Positions 15,551 through 33,583 of a DNA stretch of 45,931 nucleotides are shown here, one piece after another. The notes below the pieces were generated by a model. It saw only the letters and a list, made by a program, of their open reading frames with translations, ran no database searches and was not told the DNA's origin. The DNA comes from a virus: the IMG/VR virus record IMGVR_UViG_3300009610_000019. One strand, given 5' to 3'. Both the position numbers and the translations under genes were made by a program. Each line of letters opens with the position of its first letter. Position 1 is the stretch's first letter.

Positions 15551-15888
15551 TTTGCCTCCCGCACCCGGTCCATGCGGTGCTTGTGTCGGTACTGCGACTC
15601 CTGGGAAACCGAGTGCCGCTCCTTGCCGTTGGCTTTGAGCAGCTTGGCCTCCGTCTGGGCCGAGTCTACCTGCACCGGCACGCCGCCCGGCAGGATGTTC
15701 TCCGAGACGAAGCCGTAGCGGCCCTTGCTCGGGTTCGAGAACGAGCCCGGCCCTTGGGCCATCCAGTCGCGGATCATCAGTCGGCCGCACTCCGGGCACT
15801 TCGGAATGCGGCCGGCGAGCTGCGAGTACAGGCAATCGACCGTCTCGCGCTCTTGATGCTCTTCACAGAAGAACGGGAACGTCGCCAC
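15547..15888 (-). CDS. zinc-ribbon protein, 113 aa
   Basis: FCEEH...CPECG motif. It starts on the last base of the portal stop codon. Confidence 0.6.
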   Translation of the reverse strand: MATFPFFCEEHQERETVDCLYSQLAGRIPKCPECGRLMIRDWMAQGPGSFSNPSKGRYGFVSENILPGGVPVQVDSAQTEAKLLKANGKERHSVSQESQYRHKHRMDRVREAK

Positions 15889-17954
15889 TACGCGCCTCCG
15901 GTATCGCCGCCGTGCGGGCGCAGCGCGCGACCTTGCGAGCGGCCCTCGAACGTCCGGCCCTGTTCGTCCGCACCTGGATCGGGGGGCTTGGGGCCGCCAG
16001 CGTCGCCGCCGGCATCCGCTCCACCTGCCCCGCCCTCAGCCTCACCGCCACCAAGCCCCCCTGCCACCAGGTTGAACGCCACCATCTGCAACTGCTTCTG
16101 CATCTCCGGGTCATCCACCCGGCGCACCTTCCAGAACCATTCGTTGAACTTGTCGGACAGGAAGGCCGCTGGTCCCAGGATCTTGAGCACGCCCTGGGAG
16201 TCGGCCAGCTCCTTCGCCTCGTCGTGCGGGCGCATGTCCATCACGTCGCAGGCGGCCTCGGCGTCCATGACGATCTGCTCTGGCGTGACGGTGCCCTGCC
16301 ACAGCTTGCCCTCGGGGCCGACGATGGCGACGGCCAGGTTCACGTCGAGAGTCGCCTGGAGCACGTTGTACGTCTTGGTGCCGATGCCGCCCAGGAAGCG
16401 CGCCACCATGCGGCGCTTGTCCTCTTCGGTGAGCGTGCCGCGGTTCTCGACGATGGCGGCCTGGGTCGCGGTGCCGGACTGCGCCGTGCCGCGGGCTTCC
16501 GGGCTCGATCCCATGATTTCGCTCATGTCCGCGATGTTGCGGTCGTCGTCGTAGACGGCAGGCTCAAGCGGCGCCATGTCGATGGGCTTCAAGGCGTTTC
16601 CAGACTTCGTCTCGACGACGGTCATGTCCTCGCCGTTTTTGAGCAGTTCCTTGTTCGCCTGGTCGATGTCGCCCCTGCGGGACTCGATCTTGCGGACGGC
16701 CCGCGCCTGGTGCGTCAACCGCTGACTGCGGCTGCGGTTGTACGCACGCACCAAGGGGCGGGCAGCGGTGATGTCCGGGTACGGCATCCACTCGGACAGA
16801 ACCTCGTTGAACTTGACCCACTCGAACGGGCTGTGCCCGACGTAGCCGGGAATGGGCTCGGCGCCCACCAGCTTGTGATAGTCGTCCACCATGTAGACGA
16901 CGCAGCGGCGCTCGAAGTCCCAGACTTCCCAGCCCCAGATGCGCGCCATGTCGGATTTGCTGGCTTCCGTGCGGTCGTAGCGAAACATGGACACGCGCTT
17001 GGTGCCGCGGCCCAGGCGCTTGTTCTGCGAGCCGCCGAAGAACTCGTTGCCGCTGTTGTTCTCGTCCAGGTATCGAACCGACTCCAGCACGTCCTCCTTG
17101 TTCGAGAACATGCGATTGGCCTTGAACTGCTCGAAGGTCCAGCAGCGGCGCCTGGCGAACCGGCGGTGGTCCATGAAGTCGTTCGTGCCCTCGGGGTCGA
17201 ACACGCAGTCGCGGAAGTCCACGAAGTCCACGCGGTACAGGTCGGCCGGCCGGCGGTTGTCCAAGAGCACGCGATTGCCGGCGCGGACCTGGAGGTTGCC
17301 ATTCTTGTCCAGGAGCGGGATGCCGCCTTTGACTTCCAGGCGCTCCGAGCCATCCTCCTCCACGTCGTGCTGGATCTCGCCGTAGGACGGCTCCTTGTTA
17401 GACTCGTCCTCGAAGCCTTCGTCTACGGGGGTATAGGTGACTTTGGCGCCACCTATCCCCAGTTCTGCCGCGAGCACAGCGAGGCGCGATACCCGCAGAA
17501 AGGCGTCGCGCGGCGTCTGAAGTACATAGTTCAGAGCGCGCTCGCCTATCCGCAGGTTCGCGCTGTCGGTTTCGTCCAGTTGGCGGCGGCTGGTGAGCGA
17601 GAACCACGGGAGCTTGAACATGATGGAAGCGTTCGTGGTGCGCAGTGCCGGCATGATGCGGTTGACGGACAGGACTTCCTCGGAAGCGATGTATGGCATG
17701 CCGAGCATGTCCTTGGTCGTTTCCTGTTCGAGGCTGCCGACGTAGCCGTCCATGTTGCGCTGGAACTCTTGGATGTACGGGTCTTGTTCGTTCTGGGCGT
17801 GGCGAATCCAGGCGTCGTAGACCTGCACGTCGCGGGCGCGGCGCTTGGCTTTGGACTTGTCGCCAATGATCTGCGCCAGCTTCTCGTCGCGCGCTTCCCG
17901 CATGACGCCCGAGCCGCCACGCGGGATGCCCTTTTCACGGGGTCGTTGCGCCAC
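15888..17954 (-). CDS. portal protein, 688 aa
   Basis: Largest ORF between the terminase and scaffold genes, in the canonical gene order. It has a Gly/Ala/Asp-rich C-terminal tail, and a GTG start with GGGAGG upstream. Confidence 0.7.
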   Translation of the reverse strand: MAQRPREKGIPRGGSGVMREARDEKLAQIIGDKSKAKRRARDVQVYDAWIRHAQNEQDPYIQEFQRNMDGYVGSLEQETTKDMLGMPYIASEEVLSVNRIMPALRTTNASIMFKLPWFSLTSRRQLDETDSANLRIGERALNYVLQTPRDAFLRVSRLAVLAAELGIGGAKVTYTPVDEGFEDESNKEPSYGEIQHDVEEDGSERLEVKGGIPLLDKNGNLQVRAGNRVLLDNRRPADLYRVDFVDFRDCVFDPEGTNDFMDHRRFARRRCWTFEQFKANRMFSNKEDVLESVRYLDENNSGNEFFGGSQNKRLGRGTKRVSMFRYDRTEASKSDMARIWGWEVWDFERRCVVYMVDDYHKLVGAEPIPGYVGHSPFEWVKFNEVLSEWMPYPDITAARPLVRAYNRSRSQRLTHQARAVRKIESRRGDIDQANKELLKNGEDMTVVETKSGNALKPIDMAPLEPAVYDDDRNIADMSEIMGSSPEARGTAQSGTATQAAIVENRGTLTEEDKRRMVARFLGGIGTKTYNVLQATLDVNLAVAIVGPEGKLWQGTVTPEQIVMDAEAACDVMDMRPHDEAKELADSQGVLKILGPAAFLSDKFNEWFWKVRRVDDPEMQKQLQMVAFNLVAGGLGGGEAEGGAGGADAGGDAGGPKPPDPGADEQGRTFEGRSQGRALRPHGGDTGGA

Positions 17955-18192
17955 GCTTTACCGCCTCCCAGAACTCGGCCATGTACTGTTTCTCGCGTTC
18001 GTCCAGGGCTTGCAGGCCCTTGGCTCCGAGTACCTTGCGCTTCTCCTGGAGGGCGCCGAAGTGCGGGTAGCACTTGTCGCACAGGTCCAGGCGCTCTTGC
18101 GGGGTGAGAGACACGGTGTCGTACCGCTCAAAGTGTAAGGTCTTGCGGTTCGACAGCTCGCGCTCGCACCCGTCACAGACGACTACCTTCAT
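17935..18192 (-). CDS. zinc-ribbon protein, 85 aa
   Basis: CDGC...CDKC motif. It overlaps the portal start by 20 nt. Confidence 0.6.
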   Translation of the reverse strand: MKVVVCDGCERELSNRKTLHFERYDTVSLTPQERLDLCDKCYPHFGALQEKRKVLGAKGLQALDEREKQYMAEFWEAVKRGATTP

Positions 18193-18319
18193 CGTCGTAG
18201 ATCCGGGCCTGTACCAGCGACCGGCACTTCGTACAGATGAGTTGTGCCGGGACCAGATAGGCTTTGACCTGCTTGGTGATTTCGCACCGCTGGCAGGTGA
18301 AGATGGCGATTGGCGGCAC
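18173..18319 (-). CDS. small zinc-ribbon protein (~48 aa, start uncertain)
   Basis: CQRC...CTKC motif. The track start at 18505 would overlap the terminase 3' end by 139 nt, so I favour GTG 18319. Confidence 0.4.
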   Translation of the reverse strand: MPPIAIFTCQRCEITKQVKAYLVPAQLICTKCRSLVQARIYDDEGSRL

Positions 18320-18366
18320 GCCCTTGTCCCAGAACTCGACCGGCGCGTTGATGTTCGGATCGACCT

Positions 18367-19329
18367 CTACGCGAGGCGCGCGTTTTGGGCCAGCTTCATC
18401 ATGTGCAGCCGGTTCCGCAGCCAATCGAAGCTCCCCACTGGTGCCGGCAGTGCTTCCGGGCTCTCCCCCTGCTTCCACAGTAGGAGGTACTTGAGAGCGT
18501 CCCATGCGTGGTTATCCTTCTGTACGAGTGTTTCTTTCCGGTTGTTGTCGGCGGCCGTCTTGTCGGTGGCCCAGGACTTGTACCGGAGCTTCCGGAGTTC
18601 CCGGAAGAGGTTCTTGCACGTCTCGAAGATGTACAGTTGCGGCTCATCCAGGTTGCGCCAAAGCGTCGAGTTCAGCATCTCGCGGAAGGCGATGTCCACG
18701 CCTTCCAGGTTGTTGCCACGCTCGACCATGATGCCGTAGTCGTCGCGCAGCATTTCGCCCACGCTGCGAAGTTTCGGCCGGCCGTCCACGGTAGACTCTT
18801 GGTTCTGCCGCCAGATGGACGGATCACCGATGATGCCCTGGATGCGATGGAAGTACGGCCGCGCCTTGATCATCTCGACCTGTTCGTGGAGCGGCGTGTC
18901 TGCCTTGTACACCTCGTCAAAGACGTACATGGTTTTCTCGTCCTCCCAGGCGACGGCCATCCAGGCGAACGGGTTGTTGGTGCCGTAGTCATAGCCGCAG
19001 TAGATGGGCCAGTGGTCGTTGATCTCGAAAGGGGCGCAGGTGATTTTTGGTTGGATTACGTCCGGGAAGTTGGGCCACACCTTGGTGGACCCCGAGCCCG
19101 AGAACGACATTTCCATTTCCTGCTGCCAGTCGGGACCTTCCATGCCACCTGGGTAGCCTTTAGCGAGCACCTTGCGCAGCCATGTACGGCCTTGGAGCGT
19201 ATCGAGGTTCTTGTCGGGGTCCGCAGAATAGTGGCACATGCACACGCGGACACCGTCGCGTGTCGTATAGAACGACATGCCTTCGGTTTCTGCGAGTTCT
19301 TCGGCCTTCTTGCTGCGGACGAGTTCCAT
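18367..19329 (-). CDS. terL: terminase large subunit, C-terminal half (lid plus RNaseH-like nuclease domain), 320 aa
   Basis: Motifs VCMCHYSADPDK, IYCGYDYGTNNPFAW, IIGDPS and KDNHAWDALKYLL. ATG at 19329 in a TAATG overlap with the upstream stop. The Arg-rich N-terminal extension in the track is off-frame noise. Confidence 0.85.
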   Translation of the reverse strand: MELVRSKKAEELAETEGMSFYTTRDGVRVCMCHYSADPDKNLDTLQGRTWLRKVLAKGYPGGMEGPDWQQEMEMSFSGSGSTKVWPNFPDVIQPKITCAPFEINDHWPIYCGYDYGTNNPFAWMAVAWEDEKTMYVFDEVYKADTPLHEQVEMIKARPYFHRIQGIIGDPSIWRQNQESTVDGRPKLRSVGEMLRDDYGIMVERGNNLEGVDIAFREMLNSTLWRNLDEPQLYIFETCKNLFRELRKLRYKSWATDKTAADNNRKETLVQKDNHAWDALKYLLLWKQGESPEALPAPVGSFDWLRNRLHMMKLAQNARLA

Positions 19330-19730
19330 TACTTGCGCTTCGCCTTCGGGGTGGTGATGGGCACGAGCGTGCGGAGCCCGCCCTTTTCGTACGTCAGATG
19401 CGCGCCGACGAAGGTCGCGCCGCCCGCCATGAGCGAATCGACGATCATCTTGAGCACGGGCCAGAGCTTCGCCCACGACCAGCCGGCGAGGGCGATGGTG
19501 TTCTCGCCCGCGTAGTTGTAGTCGTAGAAGTTGAGCGAGAGGCCGGCCGCTTCCCCGAACTTCTGTAGCCCGAGGATGAGCGCGGCTGCGAAGCCGAGCC
19601 CGAACGTCCATCGCGGGATCAGTACGTTCTTGAACCAGCCGGTGTCGGGCCGCGACTTGACCCAGAAGCCGAGGAGGTTTCCGGCGGCGACCAGGTACGG
19701 GTAGATCGAGGTCCAGTCGAACGTCTGCAC
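19329..19730 (-). CDS. membrane protein, 133 aa, ~3 TM segments (inserted between the terminase halves)
   Basis: Hydrophobic segments IYPYLVAAGNLLGFWV, WTFGLGFAAALILGL and LWPVLKMIVDSLMAGGATFVGA. GTG start with RBS AAGGAG. Confidence 0.65.
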   Translation of the reverse strand: MQTFDWTSIYPYLVAAGNLLGFWVKSRPDTGWFKNVLIPRWTFGLGFAAALILGLQKFGEAAGLSLNFYDYNYAGENTIALAGWSWAKLWPVLKMIVDSLMAGGATFVGAHLTYEKGGLRTLVPITTPKAKRK

Positions 19731-19739
19731 GTTGTCTCC

Positions 19740-20531
19740 TTACGCGGTTTGGATGCCTTCGAGATGCGGGTAGCCGTTCGTGTTGAAGATGCGGACGGCG
19801 TAGATTTCGCCGCAGTACTGCACGCCGGTTGGCGCCGTGGCGCCGCAATCCGTCGTGATGCCGAGCGCGAACTGCACCTGGCGGATGCCCTTGATTGACG
19901 GCTCCGGGATGTTGTTGTACGTCGTGGCGGCGGCAACACCAGGCGGGTTCCAGAATCGCTTGCCGATCCAGATGTACGACCGGAAATATTGTCCAGAGGC
20001 GAGAGCGGTTGCCGGATACCCGAGGATTGCGCTCATGATCGTGTCGTCGCTAAGCGCCAAGGCGTTTCCGTCGCTGATTCCGACCAGATACGACGACGCG
20101 CCGTAAATGATGAGCTGGTCGCTACCCCAAAACGTCGGGGTTGCGCCGGGGTTTCCGCCCAAGCGCGAGATTGGGTGCTTGGCCCAGATTTCGTAGTTGT
20201 TGTCGTTGCGCATCGGGGTGCCGACTGCAAATCCGAACCCACTGCTTCCGGTTGCTCCGAACGCCGATGGGCCGCCACCTGCCGCAGTGCACTTGAACGC
20301 CGAGCAGATGGCGAGCATGTCGCAGCCCTTGGTGTCGATAGTCGCCCAGGAGAGCGGCGAGAGCGTACCGCCAACCACCATGCGGCCAGCCGTCGTTGGA
20401 TTCGTGTTGAAGTCAAACGTGTGCTGGGTGTTGGCGCCGTTTGCGAACGTCAGGTTCGTGACTGCCGCGCCTGTTTCCGTTGCCGGGTCGCCAATCTTCC
20501 AGAGAAGTTGGCTTTGGTACGTCTGACTCAT
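19740..20531 (-). CDS. hypothetical beta-rich protein, 263 aa (inserted between the terminase halves)
   Basis: ATG at 20531 forms an ATGA overlap with the stop of 20528..21289. The upstream part of the track ORF is off-frame over the terminase gene. Confidence 0.6.
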   Translation of the reverse strand: MSQTYQSQLLWKIGDPATETGAAVTNLTFANGANTQHTFDFNTNPTTAGRMVVGGTLSPLSWATIDTKGCDMLAICSAFKCTAAGGGPSAFGATGSSGFGFAVGTPMRNDNNYEIWAKHPISRLGGNPGATPTFWGSDQLIIYGASSYLVGISDGNALALSDDTIMSAILGYPATALASGQYFRSYIWIGKRFWNPPGVAAATTYNNIPEPSIKGIRQVQFALGITTDCGATAPTGVQYCGEIYAVRIFNTNGYPHLEGIQTA

Positions 20532-21289
20532 GCGACTTGCTCCTCGGTTTCGTTCTGCTCTACAAGGTCCCCGAAGAAAGAGCCTCCGAGAGCCGTCGAA
20601 ATGACCAGGATGCGACGCGCCATCGGCAGCGCAGCCTTGAATGCTTCGCGGAACTCCGGCTGAAAGGCCGCTTCGTCGCAGATGACGAGCGTCGCCGTAT
20701 ACGACCGGAACATATGCGGGCCTTGCGGCACGCCCCAGAACTCGCTGCCGCCGGGGTACAGAAGCTCGCCGCGCTTGCCGATGAGTCCATGCACGCGGAC
20801 GGCGATGGGGCAGGCGTATTCGATGAACCCCACGCGCGCATGCGTCCAGTCGCCGTCGTAGACGAACTTCCAGGCGTCCTCGGCCTTCTTGGACTGGAAG
20901 ATGACGCGGCTGTGCGGGTGCCGGCACTCCCACGATCCGTAGGCGCCTGCGAGCCAGGACCACGTCAACTGGCGCGACTTAACCGCAGCGCCAACGTAGT
21001 CGGCGGGGTATCCGTCGTGCATCCACTGGAGGGCTTTGCGCAGGTACTTCTTGTCGGGGAAGGCTCGAACGCGGTCTTTTGGGGCGGCTGTTTCATCGAA
21101 GGTGCGGACGAAGCCGCCGAAGATGTAGAACTCTGGGTCGGCGCTTATCTGTTCGAGCGTCTTGGCGAGTTGGGTATCGTTCGGACCTCGGGAGGAGAAT
21201 CCGTGCGCTTTCCATAGCGCGGCGTCCATGTCCATGTGAAACGGCGCCTGTTGATCCGTAAGGCGCGAGTTTCGGATTGCTACCGGCAA
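20528..21289 (-). CDS. terL: terminase large subunit, N-terminal ATPase half, 253 aa
   Basis: Ordered motifs VGAAVKSRQLTWSW (Walker-A-like), ATLVICDEAAF (Walker B) and RILVISTALGGSFF (coupling motif), followed by a stop. Confidence 0.75.
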   Translation of the reverse strand: MPVAIRNSRLTDQQAPFHMDMDAALWKAHGFSSRGPNDTQLAKTLEQISADPEFYIFGGFVRTFDETAAPKDRVRAFPDKKYLRKALQWMHDGYPADYVGAAVKSRQLTWSWLAGAYGSWECRHPHSRVIFQSKKAEDAWKFVYDGDWTHARVGFIEYACPIAVRVHGLIGKRGELLYPGGSEFWGVPQGPHMFRSYTATLVICDEAAFQPEFREAFKAALPMARRILVISTALGGSFFGDLVEQNETEEQVA

Positions 21290-21298
21290 CTACCCTGT

Positions 21299-21316
21299 CC
21301 CCACCCAACCCAACCC
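21299..21316 (-). other. G-quadruplex-type motif GGGTTGGGTTGGGTGGGG in the leader of the terminase gene
   Basis: The plus strand reads ccccacccaacccaaccc. There are four G-runs of at least 3 with 1-2 nt loops, 10-27 nt upstream of the TTG start at 21289. Confidence 0.5.
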
Positions 21317-21353
21317 AAAATATCGTGCGCGCCCCCCGGCGCGACTGTCAAGC

Positions 21354-22802
21354 CTATGTGCCGATAGGACGCCATCCCTGTTGCCAGAAGGCCCAGCCGC
21401 CGGCCGTCGTTTGGCGCACGGCTTGGGCGTAGACGTTCTCGAAGTAGTCGAGGCCGTCGAGGGTCGAGTAAATCTGTGCCCAGGTGCCGTTCGTGCCTGG
21501 AGTTTGGCCGCCGTCCGTGGACGCCCAGTAGTATTGCTGGGCGAAGGTGCCGCTTTGCTTGTCTGTGAGCCCGAGCACGATACGCAGGCCCTCGGCCTTG
21601 GCGCGCTGGAGTCCTTCGAGGATGCCGTTGGCGCCGGCCCAGGGGCGCGGGCCACTGCCGGACGTGTTGACGAAGAACAGTTCGACCCAGCGGTTGCGCA
21701 GTGCGTTCTGGTCGTAGGCGCCTGTCAGGTCGGTGCAGTTCGCCCAGCGGAACCTTCCGCCGTCTTTGGCGCGGCCGCTGGATGCAAGCGCCGCGGCCCA
21801 GGCGGCTTGCATGTCGCGCCAGCCTTGGCGGTAGGCGACCTGTGCGAGTTGCGTCGGGAGCGGCGAGGCGTTGGTGGCGTCGCCCGTGTACACGTCCTGC
21901 CGCATGTTGTCGATGAGCATGCCGTCTATTTCCCAGTTGTAGGTGCCGTTGTACTGGGAGTTGCAGTAGTTGACCCACTCGGCGGCGAGCGCGGTGCGAT
22001 GGGCGCTGCTCGTGACATCGCATTCCCAGACGTGCTTGGTGAAGTTCGGCGCGTTGGCCGGGAGCCCTGCGTGGCGGCCGGCGTCGTGCGGGCAGCCGAC
22101 GATGTTGGTCCAGCTCGCGGCATCCGGGCCGCACGTCGGCCATGAGAGGACGCCCGTGGCGTTGCCTTCGTACTCGTCGATGGCGGTACAGCCGTAGCGG
22201 TTGAGCGTGTTGCTGCTGCAACCGGACGTTGCGGCGCCAGCGAGCGGGAATCCGCGCGAGACGAGGCGCGCCGGTTCGAGGGCCGTGTAGGTCGAGTACG
22301 CCTGCTGGTTGACGGACTGGAAGTTGTGGAGCCCGGTGTGGACTTCAGTGTTGACCTTGGACGCGGCCTTGATGGCGCGGATGTGCTGGCGCGGTGGGCT
22401 GTTGCCGAGCACGCAGATGTTGAGCGCCGAGCCCATGTCGATGTTGGCGAGTCCCTTGAGCATGATCCAGTTGCCGGCGCCGGGGACGAAGGTGCCGCTG
22501 TTGGCGTCGCCGTTCACGACTTCGTTGGCGTAGATGCCTCCGCGGGCTGCGATGCGCGCGCGCAGGAAGTCATCCCACTTGCCCCAGTTGAGGCCCTTCT
22601 GGAAGGGGTTCCCCTGTAGCGTTGTGGTCGAGAAGTCGTTCGGGTCGGCCGAGTTCCATTCGTAGAACAGGAATCCCCAGAGGGGCAGTGTGCTACCGGC
22701 TTCGGCGGGCGGATTCGACGGGCGCATGGTTGCGACGCGCCGGCCGCGGCGCATTTGGGCTGCCATCTTGCCGGACAGGCTTGCGATCCCGTGTCGGTTC
22801 AT
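21354..22802 (-). CDS. putative glycoside-hydrolase-like (TIM-barrel type) protein, 482 aa
   Basis: The IDGMLIDNM-type motif and alternating pattern resemble the GH114 / GH-like families. Cys-rich. ATGA-coupled to the upstream gene. Weak, motif-level call. Confidence 0.35.
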   Translation of the reverse strand: MNRHGIASLSGKMAAQMRRGRRVATMRPSNPPAEAGSTLPLWGFLFYEWNSADPNDFSTTTLQGNPFQKGLNWGKWDDFLRARIAARGGIYANEVVNGDANSGTFVPGAGNWIMLKGLANIDMGSALNICVLGNSPPRQHIRAIKAASKVNTEVHTGLHNFQSVNQQAYSTYTALEPARLVSRGFPLAGAATSGCSSNTLNRYGCTAIDEYEGNATGVLSWPTCGPDAASWTNIVGCPHDAGRHAGLPANAPNFTKHVWECDVTSSAHRTALAAEWVNYCNSQYNGTYNWEIDGMLIDNMRQDVYTGDATNASPLPTQLAQVAYRQGWRDMQAAWAAALASSGRAKDGGRFRWANCTDLTGAYDQNALRNRWVELFFVNTSGSGPRPWAGANGILEGLQRAKAEGLRIVLGLTDKQSGTFAQQYYWASTDGGQTPGTNGTWAQIYSTLDGLDYFENVYAQAVRQTTAGGWAFWQQGWRPIGT

Positions 22803-23302
22803 AGACCCATCTCCGCTTCTTCGTCAGTCACCATGTCGATGGTGCATGAGCCATCCAGGTGCAGCTTCTGCATCAGGCTCGCATTCAATCCAGTGTACTC
22901 CGGGAAGATGCGGCTCGCCCAGACCTGTGGGTTTCGCCCGACGCCGTTCAGGAACGCCGGGTGTGTGCGGATGGTGGGGATGCCCTGGATGGTGATGCGG
23001 TCGCCTTCTTTGGCGATCTGGTAGCAGGTGCGAGCGGTGTGTCCGTAGCAGAAGAATTTCCACCATTCGGACCACTTGTTCTTCATGGGGCCTTTGGTCT
23101 TGAGCGACGCCAGGAACATATCGGCCCGCTGTGGCGGTTTGCGTCGGCGGCGCTTGATGTCCGGGTCGGCCAGTTGGCGGGCTTCGTACTCGGCGTCCAT
23201 CTGGATCTTCATGGCGGCCAGTTCTTCCGGCGTTTTTCTGGGCCAGTAGCGGATCTGGTAGACGTAGCCCGTGAGCTGGATGAAGTTTCCGGAGAGCAGC
23301 AC
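22799..23302 (-). CDS. divergent OB-fold ssDNA-binding-like protein, 167 aa
   Basis: N-terminal NFIQLTGYV, then KEGDRITIQGIP, and an acidic C-terminal tail DMVTDEEAEMGL, as in SSB proteins. Confidence 0.35.
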   Translation of the reverse strand: MLLSGNFIQLTGYVYQIRYWPRKTPEELAAMKIQMDAEYEARQLADPDIKRRRRKPPQRADMFLASLKTKGPMKNKWSEWWKFFCYGHTARTCYQIAKEGDRITIQGIPTIRTHPAFLNGVGRNPQVWASRIFPEYTGLNASLMQKLHLDGSCTIDMVTDEEAEMGL

Positions 23303-23929: not shown

Positions 23930-24271
23930 TTACAGGCCCGAGTAGGACGGGCGTTTGCGGCCGCCCTTCTTCGTGGGCTTCTTGGCCGCGGCCTTCGATG
24001 CCTTCTTGGCCTTGCGGACCGGCTTCTTCTTGGCTGCCATGCTATCACCTCCGAACGGAACAACGAACAGTCCACATTTCCGTTCGTTGATGGACTTCAC
24101 GACCGTCTTGGCTTCTTCTTCGTTCCAGCAGACGACCGTGTGGAGACTGCTGCATCCGAGCCCGAGCGCCGGGTCGAGCGCGATTTCAACGCCGCCGAAG
24201 ATGTGCGTGTGCAGCTTGGCCTTGGCGGTTCCAGACCAGATGAATGGGTATAGCTCATCGAAGGACTTCAT
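23930..24271 (-). CDS. protein with a histone-H1-like Lys/Ala/Pro tail, 113 aa
   Basis: ATG 24271 in an ATGA overlap with the SSB stop. The C-terminus reads AAKKKPVRKAKKASKAAAKKPTKKGGRKRP. The track start at 24589 is off-frame over ssb. Confidence 0.6.
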   Translation of the reverse strand: MKSFDELYPFIWSGTAKAKLHTHIFGGVEIALDPALGLGCSSLHTVVCWNEEEAKTVVKSINERKCGLFVVPFGGDSMAAKKKPVRKAKKASKAAAKKPTKKGGRKRPSYSGL

Positions 24272-24786
24272 GCGGTGCCGCCCTGCAAGAGCATCGCCAT
24301 GATGCCGGCCAGGTGTCTCTTGGCTTCGTCTCGGGGCGTCACGGCGAGGTCGTCCGGAGTTGGGTCTGGGATGGGGAGCCCCCGGAGCCAGCGCGGAGGA
24401 TACGCTCGGACGTGCTCGTAACGTTCGAGCGCCAGCATGTGTTCCGGTTTGGCTTCGACGGGGGTTTCCTCGGCGTCCAGTTGGACGGTTTCTTGTCCGA
24501 ACGAGATGCGGTCGGCGCGCATGGTGCGTTGGATGCGTGCTTGGCCGTCGCGGCCCGACCAGGGGCGTTCTTCGACTGGTCCGGAGCACATGGCGATGCG
24601 GCCTTTTTCGAGGTGTCGCAGCGCGAATTCTGCGACGTTGGCGCGGGCGAGGATGTCGTACCAGACGTTGCCGCCTTCGTAGTCGCGGACGCAGAGCGAG
24701 AACTTGGTGAATATCTTACCGTTGCGGTCATAGATTTCTTCTGGATCGCGTCCCAGGTTCCCCGAAACCGTTTCGCGTCTTTGCAA
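24268..24786 (-). CDS. ssb: single-stranded DNA-binding protein, 172 aa
   Basis: VSGNLGRDPE...GK.FTKFSL...W.D......AE....L.KG pattern of the bacterial SSB OB-fold. TTG start after GGGAGGGA. Confidence 0.75.
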   Translation of the reverse strand: MQRRETVSGNLGRDPEEIYDRNGKIFTKFSLCVRDYEGGNVWYDILARANVAEFALRHLEKGRIAMCSGPVEERPWSGRDGQARIQRTMRADRISFGQETVQLDAEETPVEAKPEHMLALERYEHVRAYPPRWLRGLPIPDPTPDDLAVTPRDEAKRHLAGIMAMLLQGGTA

Positions 24787-27644: not shown

Positions 27645-27922
27645 GCTGCACCGCCGGGGAAGTCGAACGCCGCGACGTGCGGCAACGCCCGGCATGGGGC
27701 GCTGTCGTTGTGGTTCTGCTCGCGGTACTCCGGCTTGCCGTGCGCCGCCGTCCAGGCCGCGACGAATGCCGGCGCGTCGCAATCTTCCTCAAGGTAGACC
27801 GTCCGGCCGTCCCGGCTCCGGAACGAGTACCGCGTCACCGCGACGCCCACCGCGCGCACGTCCGCCGCCGGCACTTCGAGCCACCCGTGTCCGGGGTCCG
27901 TGTGGAAGGTGTACGTTGTCAT
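27641..27922 (-). CDS. hypothetical protein, 93 aa
   Basis: Begins MTTYTFHTDPGHGWLEVP. ATGA-coupled. Confidence 0.65.
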   Translation of the reverse strand: MTTYTFHTDPGHGWLEVPAADVRAVGVAVTRYSFRSRDGRTVYLEEDCDAPAFVAAWTAAHGKPEYREQNHNDSAPCRALPHVAAFDFPGGAA

Positions 27923-28335
27923 GCCGTCACCCCCGCCGCGTCCGTCTGCGCCACGTCAAAAACCGTCACCGGAACGAAGCGCGGCCGGCCGTCCGGTCCG
28001 TCCGTGATGCTTTGCAGCTCGCCGTCAGCATCCCGCTTGCCGGCCGGCGCCCACACCATCAACCCGCGCTCCCCCTTGCGCACCGCGCGCCCGGCCTTGC
28101 GCCACTGGTGAAACCCGCCCAGGATGGTAGCGTCCGGGCGCTGCATGTACACGAGACACGAATTGTGGACCGACAACCCGCGCCCCGTCACCATCACCGC
28201 GCCGGCCATCTTGCCAGCCAGCGCCGCGCGTTCCTCGTCAGGCATCGCGCCGATTTTCTTGGCGATCTCGTAGAACCGTTGCCGGCGCTCGGCCGCGGCG
28301 GCCTGCTGCTCCGGTGTCGCCTGCTTGCGTCCCAT
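27919..28335 (-). CDS. ArdC-N-terminal-like ssDNA-binding protein, 138 aa
   Basis: SVHNSCLVYMQ...GGFHQWRKAGRAVRKGERGLMVWAP matches the S..N..L....F.QW...G..V.KGE pattern of the ArdC/DUF1738 N-domain. Confidence 0.5.
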   Translation of the reverse strand: MGRKQATPEQQAAAAERRQRFYEIAKKIGAMPDEERAALAGKMAGAVMVTGRGLSVHNSCLVYMQRPDATILGGFHQWRKAGRAVRKGERGLMVWAPAGKRDADGELQSITDGPDGRPRFVPVTVFDVAQTDAAGVTA

Positions 28336-31277: not shown

Positions 31278-31465
31278 GGCTTCCCCTCCGATCCCCGCCC
31301 CTTGCGGGTTGAATGAATCGCACACTCCCGGTGGCCGCTGGCAGCCTTACGCCAACAGCCGCCCCATGTACAGAACTTCGCCTTGCGCTTGCGCTCGCGG
31401 TACGCCGACTGCATCCGCGCATTCATCGCGCGCACCTCCTCATCCGTCTTTATTGCTCGAACCAT
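31274..31465 (-). CDS. small basic Cys/His protein, 63 aa
   Basis: ATG start. Contains FCTWGGCWRKAASGHRECAIH. Confidence 0.5.
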   Translation of the reverse strand: MVRAIKTDEEVRAMNARMQSAYRERKRKAKFCTWGGCWRKAASGHRECAIHSTRKGRGSEGKP

Positions 31466-31826
31466 CCTTCACCCCCGAAACCCCAACGATGAACCGCTTG
31501 CCGCGCCCGACCCAGGTGATGTCCAAGTGCCGGAGCACGACCACCGAATCTCCCTTGAACGCCGCACCAGTGAGCCCGTCTAGAACCGACTTCGCGTAGT
31601 TGTCCAAGTCGCCACGCATCGGCGCCCAGAGCCGAATCGTCACGGTGTAGGTGTCGAACGCCTCTAAGCACTCGAAGCCGTGCGTCCGATACCAGTCATC
31701 CGCCACTCGCTGTTTCCAGCCCTGGTACGCCTCGTCGCGTACAGCGTGGCCCTGCATGATCCGCGGCCTGGGCGCCGGCACACAGGCGTACTCGAACTGC
31801 TTGGTGTACGTCTTGGGCACGATCAT
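31440..31826 (-). CDS. rusA: RusA-family Holliday junction resolvase, 128 aa
   Basis: RGDLDNYAKSVLDGLTGAAFKGDSVVV matches the DxDN..K...D.L......DD motif of RusA. Confidence 0.75.
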   Translation of the reverse strand: MIVPKTYTKQFEYACVPAPRPRIMQGHAVRDEAYQGWKQRVADDWYRTHGFECLEAFDTYTVTIRLWAPMRGDLDNYAKSVLDGLTGAAFKGDSVVVLRHLDITWVGRGKRFIVGVSGVKDGSSNKDG

Positions 31827-32389
31827 GCCAGCAGCCCCTTGATCTGGTACTCCACCAGCTTGTCCGGATTCACCATGATTTTCGTGAACGGCTCATCCTT
31901 GAGACGCGCAATCGGCCGGCCGTCCTCCGTCTTGGGTTCCAGCCCAGCCTCCAGCGCCATCCGGATCATGTCCGTGTCCTGGTGAATCTCCCTCACCTCG
32001 CGCGTGTACTGCGCCGGCAGGTCGCTCACCGGCACCAGCAACTCCACGCCACCACGCGCCGCCTGCCAGTACGCCGTGAACAGACCATCATCGGCCTCGA
32101 CCTTGCGCACGCCCTTCTTCGTCGGCGTCACCTTCTCCAGCATCTTCGTCACCTGCGGGCGCAAGGCGTCCACGCGGTCTTGCTTGAACGCGAGCACGAT
32201 CTTGGCCTCCTTCAAGAGCGCATCGAGTTCTTTGATGCGCTGCTCCTGGAGCACGATAGCCAGCACCGCGTCCTGCACCTCGGCAACGGTGAGTTCCTGA
32301 ATCTCGGCCTCTTGCTCTGGCGACATGACGCGGCCGGCCTCGGCCTCGCGCATGATCTCCAGAATGCGGTTATCAGAACGGAAGGTCAT
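31823..32389 (-). CDS. Gp157-like protein associated with annealing proteins, 188 aa
   Basis: Coiled-coil N-terminal half and a position directly after the annealing protein. Weak similarity call. Confidence 0.4.
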   Translation of the reverse strand: MTFRSDNRILEIMREAEAGRVMSPEQEAEIQELTVAEVQDAVLAIVLQEQRIKELDALLKEAKIVLAFKQDRVDALRPQVTKMLEKVTPTKKGVRKVEADDGLFTAYWQAARGGVELLVPVSDLPAQYTREVREIHQDTDMIRMALEAGLEPKTEDGRPIARLKDEPFTKIMVNPDKLVEYQIKGLLA

Positions 32390-33338
32390 GGAGACAGCCC
32401 TTCTTTGTGAGCAGCGCCTTGATGTGCTGCGTGATCTTGTGCAGCGCGTCCAGCTCGGCGCCCTTCGCCGCGTTGCGCGCTACATACTCGATTGCCGACG
32501 CCTTTTCTTCGGCTGTCGTGCATTCGCACTGGAGCGCGTAGTCAAGCTCCGCCCGCGCCACTTCGGTCGGCGTGAACTCGCGGTCTAGGATCTTCTTCGT
32601 GGCCGGCACGGGCGCGGGCGGCACCGGGGTCGCCTTGGCGGCCTCGTCTCTGGCCGCCCGGTCCCTGTCGCCGCGCGTCATCGCAGGTGCGGGCCGAGCC
32701 GGGGCGGGCGCACTCGGCGCTTCGCGCTTCGCCTCCGGCTGCGACCCACTCTGCTGCTGGCGCATGGCGTGTTCGTACCAGCCCTTGCGCCACAGGTCCG
32801 CGAACATGCCTAGGTCCTTACAGGCCCGCGTGATGCTGTCCGACTTGGCCTTCTCCATCGCCGTGGCCGGGTTCTCGTGCTCGAAGTAGCGCGACTCGCC
32901 CCACGACTCAGCCAAGAGCCGCGCCGCACCATCCTGGAACGCATACAGGGCGCCGTACAGGCAAACGTCCGTGGTCCGCTTGCCGTTGCGCTCCTTGCTG
33001 TAGATTTGTGGCTGGCCGATCATGTGCCACAGCCACCCGCCCACGCCAAACGCATCGTTCAACCGCTGGCGGAACTCCACCTGCTCGACGTAGTGCATGC
33101 CGTCCTCGCGGGTCAGAACCCAGTCCACGGGTGTCGGTGCCCGCAGGATCGCGTCCTGCTCCTTTGTGATCGGCGTCCCGCGCACCGCCAGCATGTGCGG
33201 CGCCTGTACCAGCGCCGGCACCGCGACGGCTTCCGCCGGCACTGCCGCCAACGACCGCTCGGACTGCACTTCGCCCGTCTCCGGGTCCACTTCTTCGCCG
33301 TCCACGATGATCGGGTCGGCCTTCTTGCGCGTTGCCAT
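32373..33338 (-). CDS. Rad52/Sak-type single-strand annealing protein, 321 aa
   Basis: RLNDAFGVGGW and AMEKAKSDSITRACKDLGMFADLW motifs. ATG 33338 after AGGAGGA. The track N-terminal extension is rejected. Confidence 0.7.
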   Translation of the reverse strand: MATRKKADPIIVDGEEVDPETGEVQSERSLAAVPAEAVAVPALVQAPHMLAVRGTPITKEQDAILRAPTPVDWVLTREDGMHYVEQVEFRQRLNDAFGVGGWLWHMIGQPQIYSKERNGKRTTDVCLYGALYAFQDGAARLLAESWGESRYFEHENPATAMEKAKSDSITRACKDLGMFADLWRKGWYEHAMRQQQSGSQPEAKREAPSAPAPARPAPAMTRGDRDRAARDEAAKATPVPPAPVPATKKILDREFTPTEVARAELDYALQCECTTAEEKASAIEYVARNAAKGAELDALHKITQHIKALLTKKGCLHDLPF

Positions 33339-33346
33339 CGGTCCTC

Positions 33347-33583
33347 CTACTTGAGCCGCAACCACGCGGCGCGGTCTTGGGTGTTGTCGAACGCGCCACC
33401 GTGGCGCGGGTGCTCTTGCGCTGCATCGTACGCATCCTGGTTGTCGCGCAACCATTCATCCGCGCACGAGTGCGAGCAGAACTGCTCACGCTCCGTCTCG
33501 ATGTACACGTCCTGGACTTTGATCTTCTCGGCGCACTGGTAGCAGCGCCGCTCTGGGTCCAGGTTGATCGTCGCCAGTCGCAT
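33347..33583 (-). CDS. zinc-finger protein (FCS/MYM-like), 78 aa; first gene of the leftward early operon
   Basis: ATG 33583 after GGGAGG. Contains CYQC...FCSHSC. Confidence 0.6.
   Translation of the reverse strand: MRLATINLDPERRCYQCAEKIKVQDVYIETEREQFCSHSCADEWLRDNQDAYDAAQEHPRHGGAFDNTQDRAAWLRLK

Follow-up and report, generated by a model that had tools for sequence, protein, structure and literature searches.

A large terminase encoded as two genes, split within the predicted ATPase domain, in a family of uncultured phages

Large terminases are textbook single-chain motors that combine an ATPase and a nuclease, and, to our knowledge, all structural and single-molecule models assume a covalent link that ties lid and nuclease to the ATPase core. 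In herpesviruses, the gene of the terminase ATPase-nuclease, UL15, consists of two exons flanking UL16 and UL17, these intervening genes being on the opposite strand, and it is spliced to yield one polypeptide. Among jumbo phages (Jug, AR9-like and MarsHill-like), the gene for the terminase's large subunit (terL) can be split by group I introns, the mRNA being restored by splicing (PMC12880540; bioRxiv 10.1101/2020.12.14.422802), while the so-called “fractured genes”, including one gp17-like terminase locus, associate a split intein with a free-standing homing endonuclease (Dassa et al. 2009, PMC2677866). Other enzymes are made in pieces too: the products of the intein-less NrdA of Aeh1, split by mobE, reassemble (cited in PMC2677866), and phiKZ-like phages have an RNA polymerase with multi-gene beta and beta' subunits (bioRxiv 10.1101/2020.12.14.422802). 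We found no description of an intron-less and intein-less two-gene TerL in the full-text literature, the coverage of which is incomplete and the silence of which is absence of evidence; a gene pair related to the large terminase is mentioned for Arthrobacter cluster AT (PMC5513430). The present work deals with a terL of this kind, carried by the IMG/VR virus record IMGVR_UViG_3300009610_000019, a DNA stretch of 45,931 nucleotides (hereafter the window, i.e., the whole stretch analysed).

On the minus strand of the window, the ATPase and the nuclease of the terminase are not encoded as one polypeptide but as two open reading frames (ORFs), A (terL-N) and D (terL-C), which lie 1.2 kb and two genes apart. 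The intervening genes, ORFs B and C, are referred to as the cassette, and the four genes follow each other head to tail in the order A, B, C, D (Table 1). We consider, with a probability of about 80%, that this is an old and stable two-chain terminase, in which A and D would assemble non-covalently into one ATPase-nuclease protomer and of which the inter-half slot would exchange accessory genes. At the first junction (GCATGAGT), A and B share an ATGA overlap; at the second one, the TAA of B is followed by a 9-nt spacer (GGAGACAAC) and by the GTG of C, with an AAGGAG that takes the last two bases of the stop codon; at the third one, C and D overlap by one base in TAATG. The A–D interval is wholly coding, with overlapping starts and stops. 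A preliminary description of the window had already given the coordinates and motifs of both halves, the two ORFs filling the gap and the three junctions, and all of these were recovered on the minus strand.

Both halves are recognizable as parts of a terminase. A displays the motifs KSRQLTWSW, LVICDEAAF and LVISTALGGSFF and then stops; in PHROGs, it aligns to positions 267–415 of the 807 of phrog_2 (terminase large subunit; E 7.5e-9), and it has no match in Pfam. D displays VCMCHYSADPDK, GYDYGTNNPFAW, IIGDPS and DNHAWDALKYLL, and aligns to positions 440–590 of phrog_2 (E 3e-10) and to phrog_5653 (1e-14), with a Terminase_3C match just below threshold in Pfam. Given these positions on phrog_2, A and D are consecutive parts of one TerL, and the identity first assigned to the two ORFs from their motifs is borne out by the profile searches and, for D, by the structural comparison reported below. 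Across 21 homologues of A, residues K104, S105, R106, Q107, W112, D205 and E206 are invariant. The last two belong to the Walker B motif (LVICDE), motif III reads IST, and both are in register with a solved TerL. KSRQLTWS occupies the P-loop position, where it differs from the canonical GK[ST] motif; we take it to resemble the deviant type of lambda gpA (KSARVGYS) and the SRQLGKT of T4. Its invariant Trp would presumably stand at the place of the GK[ST] lysine of T4 gp17, and its invariant Lys opens the motif, an arrangement that the lambda gpA type would share.

In D, residues ~1–90 correspond to the remainder of the ATPase domain, i.e., a beta-hairpin with a HYSADPDK block followed by the lid helices, and residues ~95–290 to an RNase H-like nuclease, in which D114, D169 and D277 are invariant in 17 sequences. 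The D profile matches the nuclease structures of SPP1 and P22 from position ~90, and when D was modelled with AlphaFold and searched with Foldseek, the nucleases of the D6E (2e-10), P22, G20c and Sf6 terminases were matched. The mean predicted local distance difference test score (pLDDT) of this model is 79.8, with values of 84–96 in the nuclease and of 55–79 for residues 1–88, which is consistent with a region that requires A for folding. The HYSADPDK block is one of the best-conserved segments of D; in fused relatives, it forms part of the ATPase domain. When compared with the counterparts in L094, the closest relative (L-numbers designate the contigs of relatives, and P-numbers library proteins), A has a ratio of non-synonymous to synonymous substitution rates (dN/dS) of 0.12 and D one of 0.17, both below the 0.24 of the portal gene. 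Considering these values together with the invariance of the motif residues, both halves are functional genes. That they package and cut DNA receives indirect support from their position upstream of the portal gene, the purifying selection and the lack of another TerL in the window: the family profiles of A and D detect no other ORF there, and PHROGs scans of other predicted proteins of the window yielded no further terminase.

The position of the break was located by means of relatives in which the two parts are fused, which align to A and D end to end without additional sequence (the combined alignment of A, D and fused proteins was checked column by column before use). In the fused protein P0016, residues 3–219 correspond to A 42–243 and residues 218–538 to D 2–308; the A family stops at its FGEEIAT and the D family begins at its RGVARFKT. 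Relative to fused homologues, the extensions amount to ~10 residues on the C-terminus of A and ~20 variable residues on the N-terminus of D. In the AlphaFold model of P0016 (pLDDT 88.2), the strand of motif III (202–207) and a helix (214–224) are followed by a loop (225–233), which is the place of the break, then by two strands (234–238 and 244–248), three helices (261–273, 281–286 and 303–310) and the nuclease from residue 324. D178 and T208 of P0016 correspond to D255 (Walker B) and T285 (motif III) of T4 gp17, respectively. With Foldseek, this model aligns to the crystal structure of the ATPase domain of T4 gp17 over 296 columns (3.4 A, E 8e-16), and since the alignment spans that many columns, the ATPase domain continues ~60 residues beyond the break. 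As modelled, the break thus cuts into an ATPase domain of the T4 gp17 type, beyond motif III and the helix next to it, and the lid region goes with the nuclease. The break at the “ATPase/lid boundary” of the preliminary description was therefore essentially right, subject to this refinement: it falls within the ATPase domain itself. Going by the subdomain boundaries of gp17, D would presumably hold the last core strand(s) together with the lid or transmission element, which is the C-terminal portion of subdomain II.

The end of A deserves a separate remark. The stand-alone ATPase halves end with a conserved acidic tail (consensus LVEExxxxEAA-stop; 20528–20560 in the window), which fused relatives do not have. 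This tail and the conserved position of the stop codon in the A family suggest, without proving it, that we are dealing with a genuine protein end, and the tail might help A to dock onto the other chain or onto the portal.

The split is widely conserved. All 37 homologues of A that were collected are 221–295 aa long, and 14 of the 16 homologues of D retrieved from a set of 5.8 billion proteins measure 300–346 aa, down to 31% identity, the other two having 550 and 557 aa. In six independent metagenome contigs, A is followed by one to three genes that look unrelated, then by D, by small ORFs and by the portal gene. To these can be added a scan of IMG/VR combining a sequence pattern and tblastn, in which 310 contigs were found to encode a relative of A and the best 80 of the 310 were classified. 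Among these 80 loci, A and D are separated by cargo genes in 13 and directly adjacent in 19, with stop-start overlaps such as ATGA, TGAAATG or ATGTTAG, while in 34 both halves share a strand, with D placed ~1.4 kb upstream of A and one gene of ~200 aa in between; three more are fused, and the contig ends on the side of D in 11. Hence, the search for relatives with the same split or none that had been proposed at the outset returned a split at the same loop for 66 of the 69 loci with enough context and a fusion for three. The halves can be up to 2.5 kb apart, and A is always accompanied by D where the contig context permits a check. The permuted group (L022–L064, e.g., L029 4632–7693) consists of low-GC (39–43%) viral contigs, mostly metagenomic, with the order: a gene of 1000–1480 aa, the nuclease half, a conserved gene of ~200 aa (weak phrog_30784) and, closing the operon, the ATPase half.

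At a larger scale, an exhaustive HMMER search of 1.84 billion cluster representatives with the A-family profile gave 4451 matches at E<=1e-3. The best 150 of them include 79 proteins that look stand-alone (200–300 aa, with a match reaching the C-terminus) and 59 of at least 440 aa, 47 of which have both A-like and D-like parts. In a rough neighbour-joining tree, split and fused states are interleaved: the clade of the window holds 11 split proteins and a fused one (P0060), and its sister clade is fused. A Fitch count on this tree amounts to 29 split/fused changes, which we take as more than one event and not as a number; it is evidence for fission or fusion having probably occurred more than once at this loop. 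In P0060 itself (551 aa, from the representative library), the linker ELIEKTGKFNYHEDDRTKIAKGTWEYTTTNG resembles the C-terminal tail of the split P0045/P0048 joined to the N-terminus of D, which suggests a secondary re-fusion. On the side of deposited phages (50,697 records), a DNA search with positions 17000–23000 of the window returned nothing and a tblastn search with A of the window gave no match, while two other A halves retrieved just T4-like TerLs at <=31% identity; in the cultured phages matched by D, TerL is an ordinary single-gene product of ~500–540 aa. Finally, a search of genome contigs for a host or prophage copy produced just two weak matches in metagenome-assembled genomes, one of them Planctomycetaceae.

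If the split is stable, the content of the slot is not. Compared with the window, L094 shows identities of 88% for A, 87% for D and 80% for the portal, but of 39% for a B-like gene. At the DNA level (blastn), window 21695–20386 aligns to L094 1629–2904 (76%) and window 19347–15909 to L094 5046–8475 (82%), with nothing between, so that the homology is lost ~140 nt inside B and returns 18 nt ahead of the D start. The slot of L094 contains five genes, namely the B-like gene and four others before D. With conserved flanks around a different cassette, the slot is a site of cassette replacement, and its content varies from one to five genes across the clade. Three extra slot genes lie at L094 3948–5047: a 187-aa membrane protein with PF28077 (THIVI_2564) and two ORFs of 72 and 94 aa.

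As far as family profiles can tell, B and C are not random morons but members of two fast-evolving families that recur at the inter-half slot. A blastp comparison of B and C with the inter-half genes of relatives gave no match, the links appearing at the family level. A hidden Markov model (HMM) of the B family built without B matches B over its full length (E 1.6e-13); this family has tandem duplicates in L014 and L015, is located upstream of A, and not between the halves, in L009 and L013, and its profile retrieves three proteins alone from the 5.8-billion-protein set. C has one strong and two moderate hydrophobic segments, which fits two to three transmembrane (TM) segments, and its last 25 aa have a net charge of +5; the membrane protein announced in the preliminary description therefore stands, with a graded number of segments in place of three. 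C matches L003 5678–6001 (phmmer 3e-7), the C family being single-linked, and related proteins with two to three TM segments directly precede D in L003, L007, L008, L012, L014, L015, L017 and L021 (phmmer), as well as in L096 (family HMM). In L017, L021 and L096, the C-family gene is the sole gene between the halves. Regarding function, three of nine family members match Phage_holin_5_2 of Pfam (PF16079; best E 0.0019, best score 18.9 bits vs. a gathering cut-off of 29.2), and four of nine match the holin phrog_1129 (best 7e-4, with L096 at 4e-4), the holin phrog_1299 being matched too. C is small, with at least one TM segment, a charged C-terminal tail and a late or lysis context, as is expected of a holin, and endolysin genes occur just upstream of A in L003, L005 and L007. 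Altogether, a holin function for C is reasonable but unproven.

At face value, two genes lodged in the middle of terL evoke a recent accident, in which an intact gene would have been broken by a moron-like two-gene cassette, leaving fragments that still work or decay. This was one of the two readings of the preliminary description, and the cassette does differ even from that of L094 and does range from one to five genes across the clade. However, the split is found at the same loop in relatives devoid of insert and in relatives with the reversed order, it holds to ~31% identity, and both halves are under strong purifying selection. Moreover, B and C do not differ from the remainder of the phage in GC content, GC content at third codon positions or codon preference, and their families are met repeatedly at the slot; no direct or inverted repeats, as sought for an excisable element, were detected at the boundaries of the cassette. 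An insertion as the cause of the split is thus most improbable, and what is recent is the turnover of the cassette. The same observations (same-loop split in a large family, insert-free and reversed orders, purifying selection) strongly support the other early reading, i.e., a TerL made of two polypeptides. As for an assembly chimera or a sequencing artefact at both junctions, raised at the same time as a formal possibility, nothing was found in its favour, and its probability is practically nil, because the architecture recurs in independent assemblies from ENA, JGI, Logan, NCBI and IMG/VR, and because two stretches of DNA homology with L094 are unbroken, one crossing from A to the 5' end of B, the other going from just before D through the portal gene.

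A contiguous TerL might also be restored after transcription or translation, whether by an intron of a new kind, by trans-splicing, by a split intein or by ribosomes that bypass the 1.2-kb cassette. The intron-split terL genes of jumbo phages and the gp17-like terminase fractured by a split intein and a homing endonuclease would offer precedents. Split-intein halves are reported at 88–105 and 33–54 aa, with 122 aa for the fractured terminase (PMC2677866). At our junctions, aligned to fused homologues, no intein halves were seen, and the extensions of at most ~10 aa on A and ~20 aa on D are short enough to exclude them. In an Rfam scan of 17500–22000 at E<=1, group I and II introns included, two chance snoRNA-like matches alone were returned, with no family reaching E=0.3, and the wholly coding interval with its overlapping starts and stops contains no ribozyme core. 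Neither B nor C matches any Pfam or PHROGs family, homing endonucleases included, and the halves have no free-standing homing endonuclease between them; on all three counts (intron, intein, endonuclease), the initial inspection had reached the same result by eye. Furthermore, cis-splicing or bypass cannot repair the 34 relatives in which the C-terminal half is upstream, and the acidic tail and conserved stop of the A family suggest, again short of proof, a real end, so that restoration appears highly improbable. Somewhat less remote, yet still unlikely, is the idea that the halves do not assemble at all, A being a phi29-like packaging ATPase and D a headful or cos nuclease brought in independently. 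There are packaging ATPases that lack an active nuclease, such as phi29 gp16, and the reversed and separated orders show that stoichiometric co-translation is not required. On the other side, the break falls inside the ATPase domain as defined in gp17 and not at the linker between ATPase and nuclease, the highly conserved HYSADPDK block of D is an ATPase-domain part in fused relatives and is poorly modelled in D alone, and A never occurs without D where the context can be checked.

The two-chain terminase that we favour would work as follows. Chain A would supply the RecA-like ATPase core through motif III and the next helix, and chain D the beta-hairpin that follows, the lid (transmission) helices and the nuclease domain in its entirety; with a break in a surface loop inside the ATPase domain, neither chain would be a complete ATPase domain on its own. 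The split is old, and a large family of uncultured phages has it in common. Among the simplest relatives, overlapping stop and start codons would couple the translation of both cistrons. In the clade of the window, the junction has become a slot for late-expressed accessory genes: directly ahead of D, it almost always houses a small membrane protein of holin-like type, and it often contains one or two copies of the fast-diverging B. The terminase halves would then act as homologous flanks, by which cassettes are swapped between close relatives. Several points weigh against this account. The number of fission and fusion events depends on a rough neighbour-joining tree, and the position of the break relative to the beta-sheet was read from secondary structure and from the subdomain boundaries of gp17. 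Likewise, B and its family alignment have no match in PHROGs, Pfam, PDB sequences or the phage collection, and C itself matches no curated holin family, the holin call deriving from sub-threshold matches of members of its family.

The rest of the window corresponds to a podovirus-like phage genome, with a portal, a major head protein, and tail-spike-like and internal-virion-like proteins. The portal gene downstream of terL-C is a conserved synteny anchor (terL-C, small ORFs, portal): the window protein is 38–48% identical to those encoded after D in L001–L008, some of which have P22_portal or SU10_portal matches in Pfam. Between terL-C and the portal gene, two small ORFs carry a CxxC...CxxC pattern (zinc-ribbon-like); the 85-aa one is kept at the same place in relatives. 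The 110-aa one, in its listed form, shares 139 nt with the 3' end of D, hence its true start is uncertain. Just upstream of terL-N, a 482-aa gene without Pfam or PHROG match shows ~42–45% identity and a dN/dS of ~0.7 with its L094 counterpart, diverging as fast as B. It is possibly a host-interaction or lysis enzyme; near its position, relatives have endolysin genes (Amidase_2, Peptidase_M15_3). A replication and recombination module comprises a Mgm101/Rad52-type annealase, RusA, an ArdC-N-like anti-restriction domain and SSB, and one further ORF of the window matches HNH endonuclease PHROGs. The window contains no tRNA genes, and no promoter-like or terminator-like sites, which could have pointed to a transcription unit of its own for the cassette, were found on the coding strand between 17800 and 23400.

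Table 1. Location of the terminase halves, the cassette and other features in the window.
Feature	Position	Strand	Remarks
A (terL-N), terminase ATPase core	20528-21289	-	253 aa; TTG start
ORF B, function not assigned	19740-20531	-	263 aa; start overlaps stop of A (ATGA)
ORF C, membrane protein	19329-19730	-	133 aa; GTG start; stop overlaps start of D (TAATG)
D (terL-C), rest of ATPase domain and nuclease	18367-19329	-	320 aa
Part of the cassette exchanged vs. L094	19348-20385	-	no DNA similarity (blastn); most of B, all of C
Small ORF, zinc-ribbon-like	18173-18505	-	110 aa
Small ORF, zinc-ribbon-like	17935-18192	-	85 aa
Portal gene	15888-17954	-	downstream of terL-C
Major head protein	13344-14435		
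Gene just upstream of terL-N	21354-22802	-	482 aa
Replication/recombination module	32373-33455, 31440-31826, 27919-28335, 24268-24786	-	

A widespread natural TerL that is cut in its ATPase domain, is under strong selection and is viable with its halves adjacent, distant or reversed provides a natural complementation system for the force-transmitting contacts among ATPase core, lid and nuclease. On the practical side, annotation, terL-based phylogeny and completeness tools will miss or mis-size such split genes, and all the homologues found here are indeed unnamed or “hypothetical”. An essential split gene also forms a conserved frame around a hypervariable cassette slot with a probable holin. 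Going one step further, we tentatively consider, though we would not bet on it, a modular two-chain motor split exactly at its mechanical hinge, which would undergo repeated fission, re-fusion and permutation, and of which the junction would be an exchange site for lysis and host-interaction genes, the halves serving as recombination anchors; separate chains might even let the phage time the joining of the nuclease.

With respect to known systems, the TerL of the window shares motif order, fold and portal adjacency with the single-chain enzymes (T4 gp17 type; D6E, Sf6, P22, HK97), the common order being the motif at the P-loop position, the Walker B DE, motif III, the lid and the RNase H-like nuclease with its three acidic residues. 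Unlike them, it is made of two cistrons, broken in the ATPase domain, the halves of which can be separated by up to 2.5 kb or reversed. The intron-split terL genes also appear as two or more ORFs in genome annotation, but they contain ribozymes, often with homing endonucleases, whereas the insert described here is ordinary coding cargo devoid of ribozyme, and permuted relatives exclude splicing. UL15 similarly has two unrelated genes between its coding parts, except that these are on the opposite strand and that splicing joins the parts. In common with the fractured genes, our locus has an essential gene in two co-oriented parts with a gene between them and a downstream half that starts by overlap with the insert; in the absence of intein halves and endonuclease, however, no protein ligation is expected. 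NrdA and the phiKZ RNA polymerase are comparable in that a normally single-chain enzyme is made of separately translated, non-covalent fragments and stably inherited as such. The present case differs from these in being a packaging motor with no homing endonuclease at the break, and in gathering adjacent, cargo-separated, permuted and re-fused states within one family.

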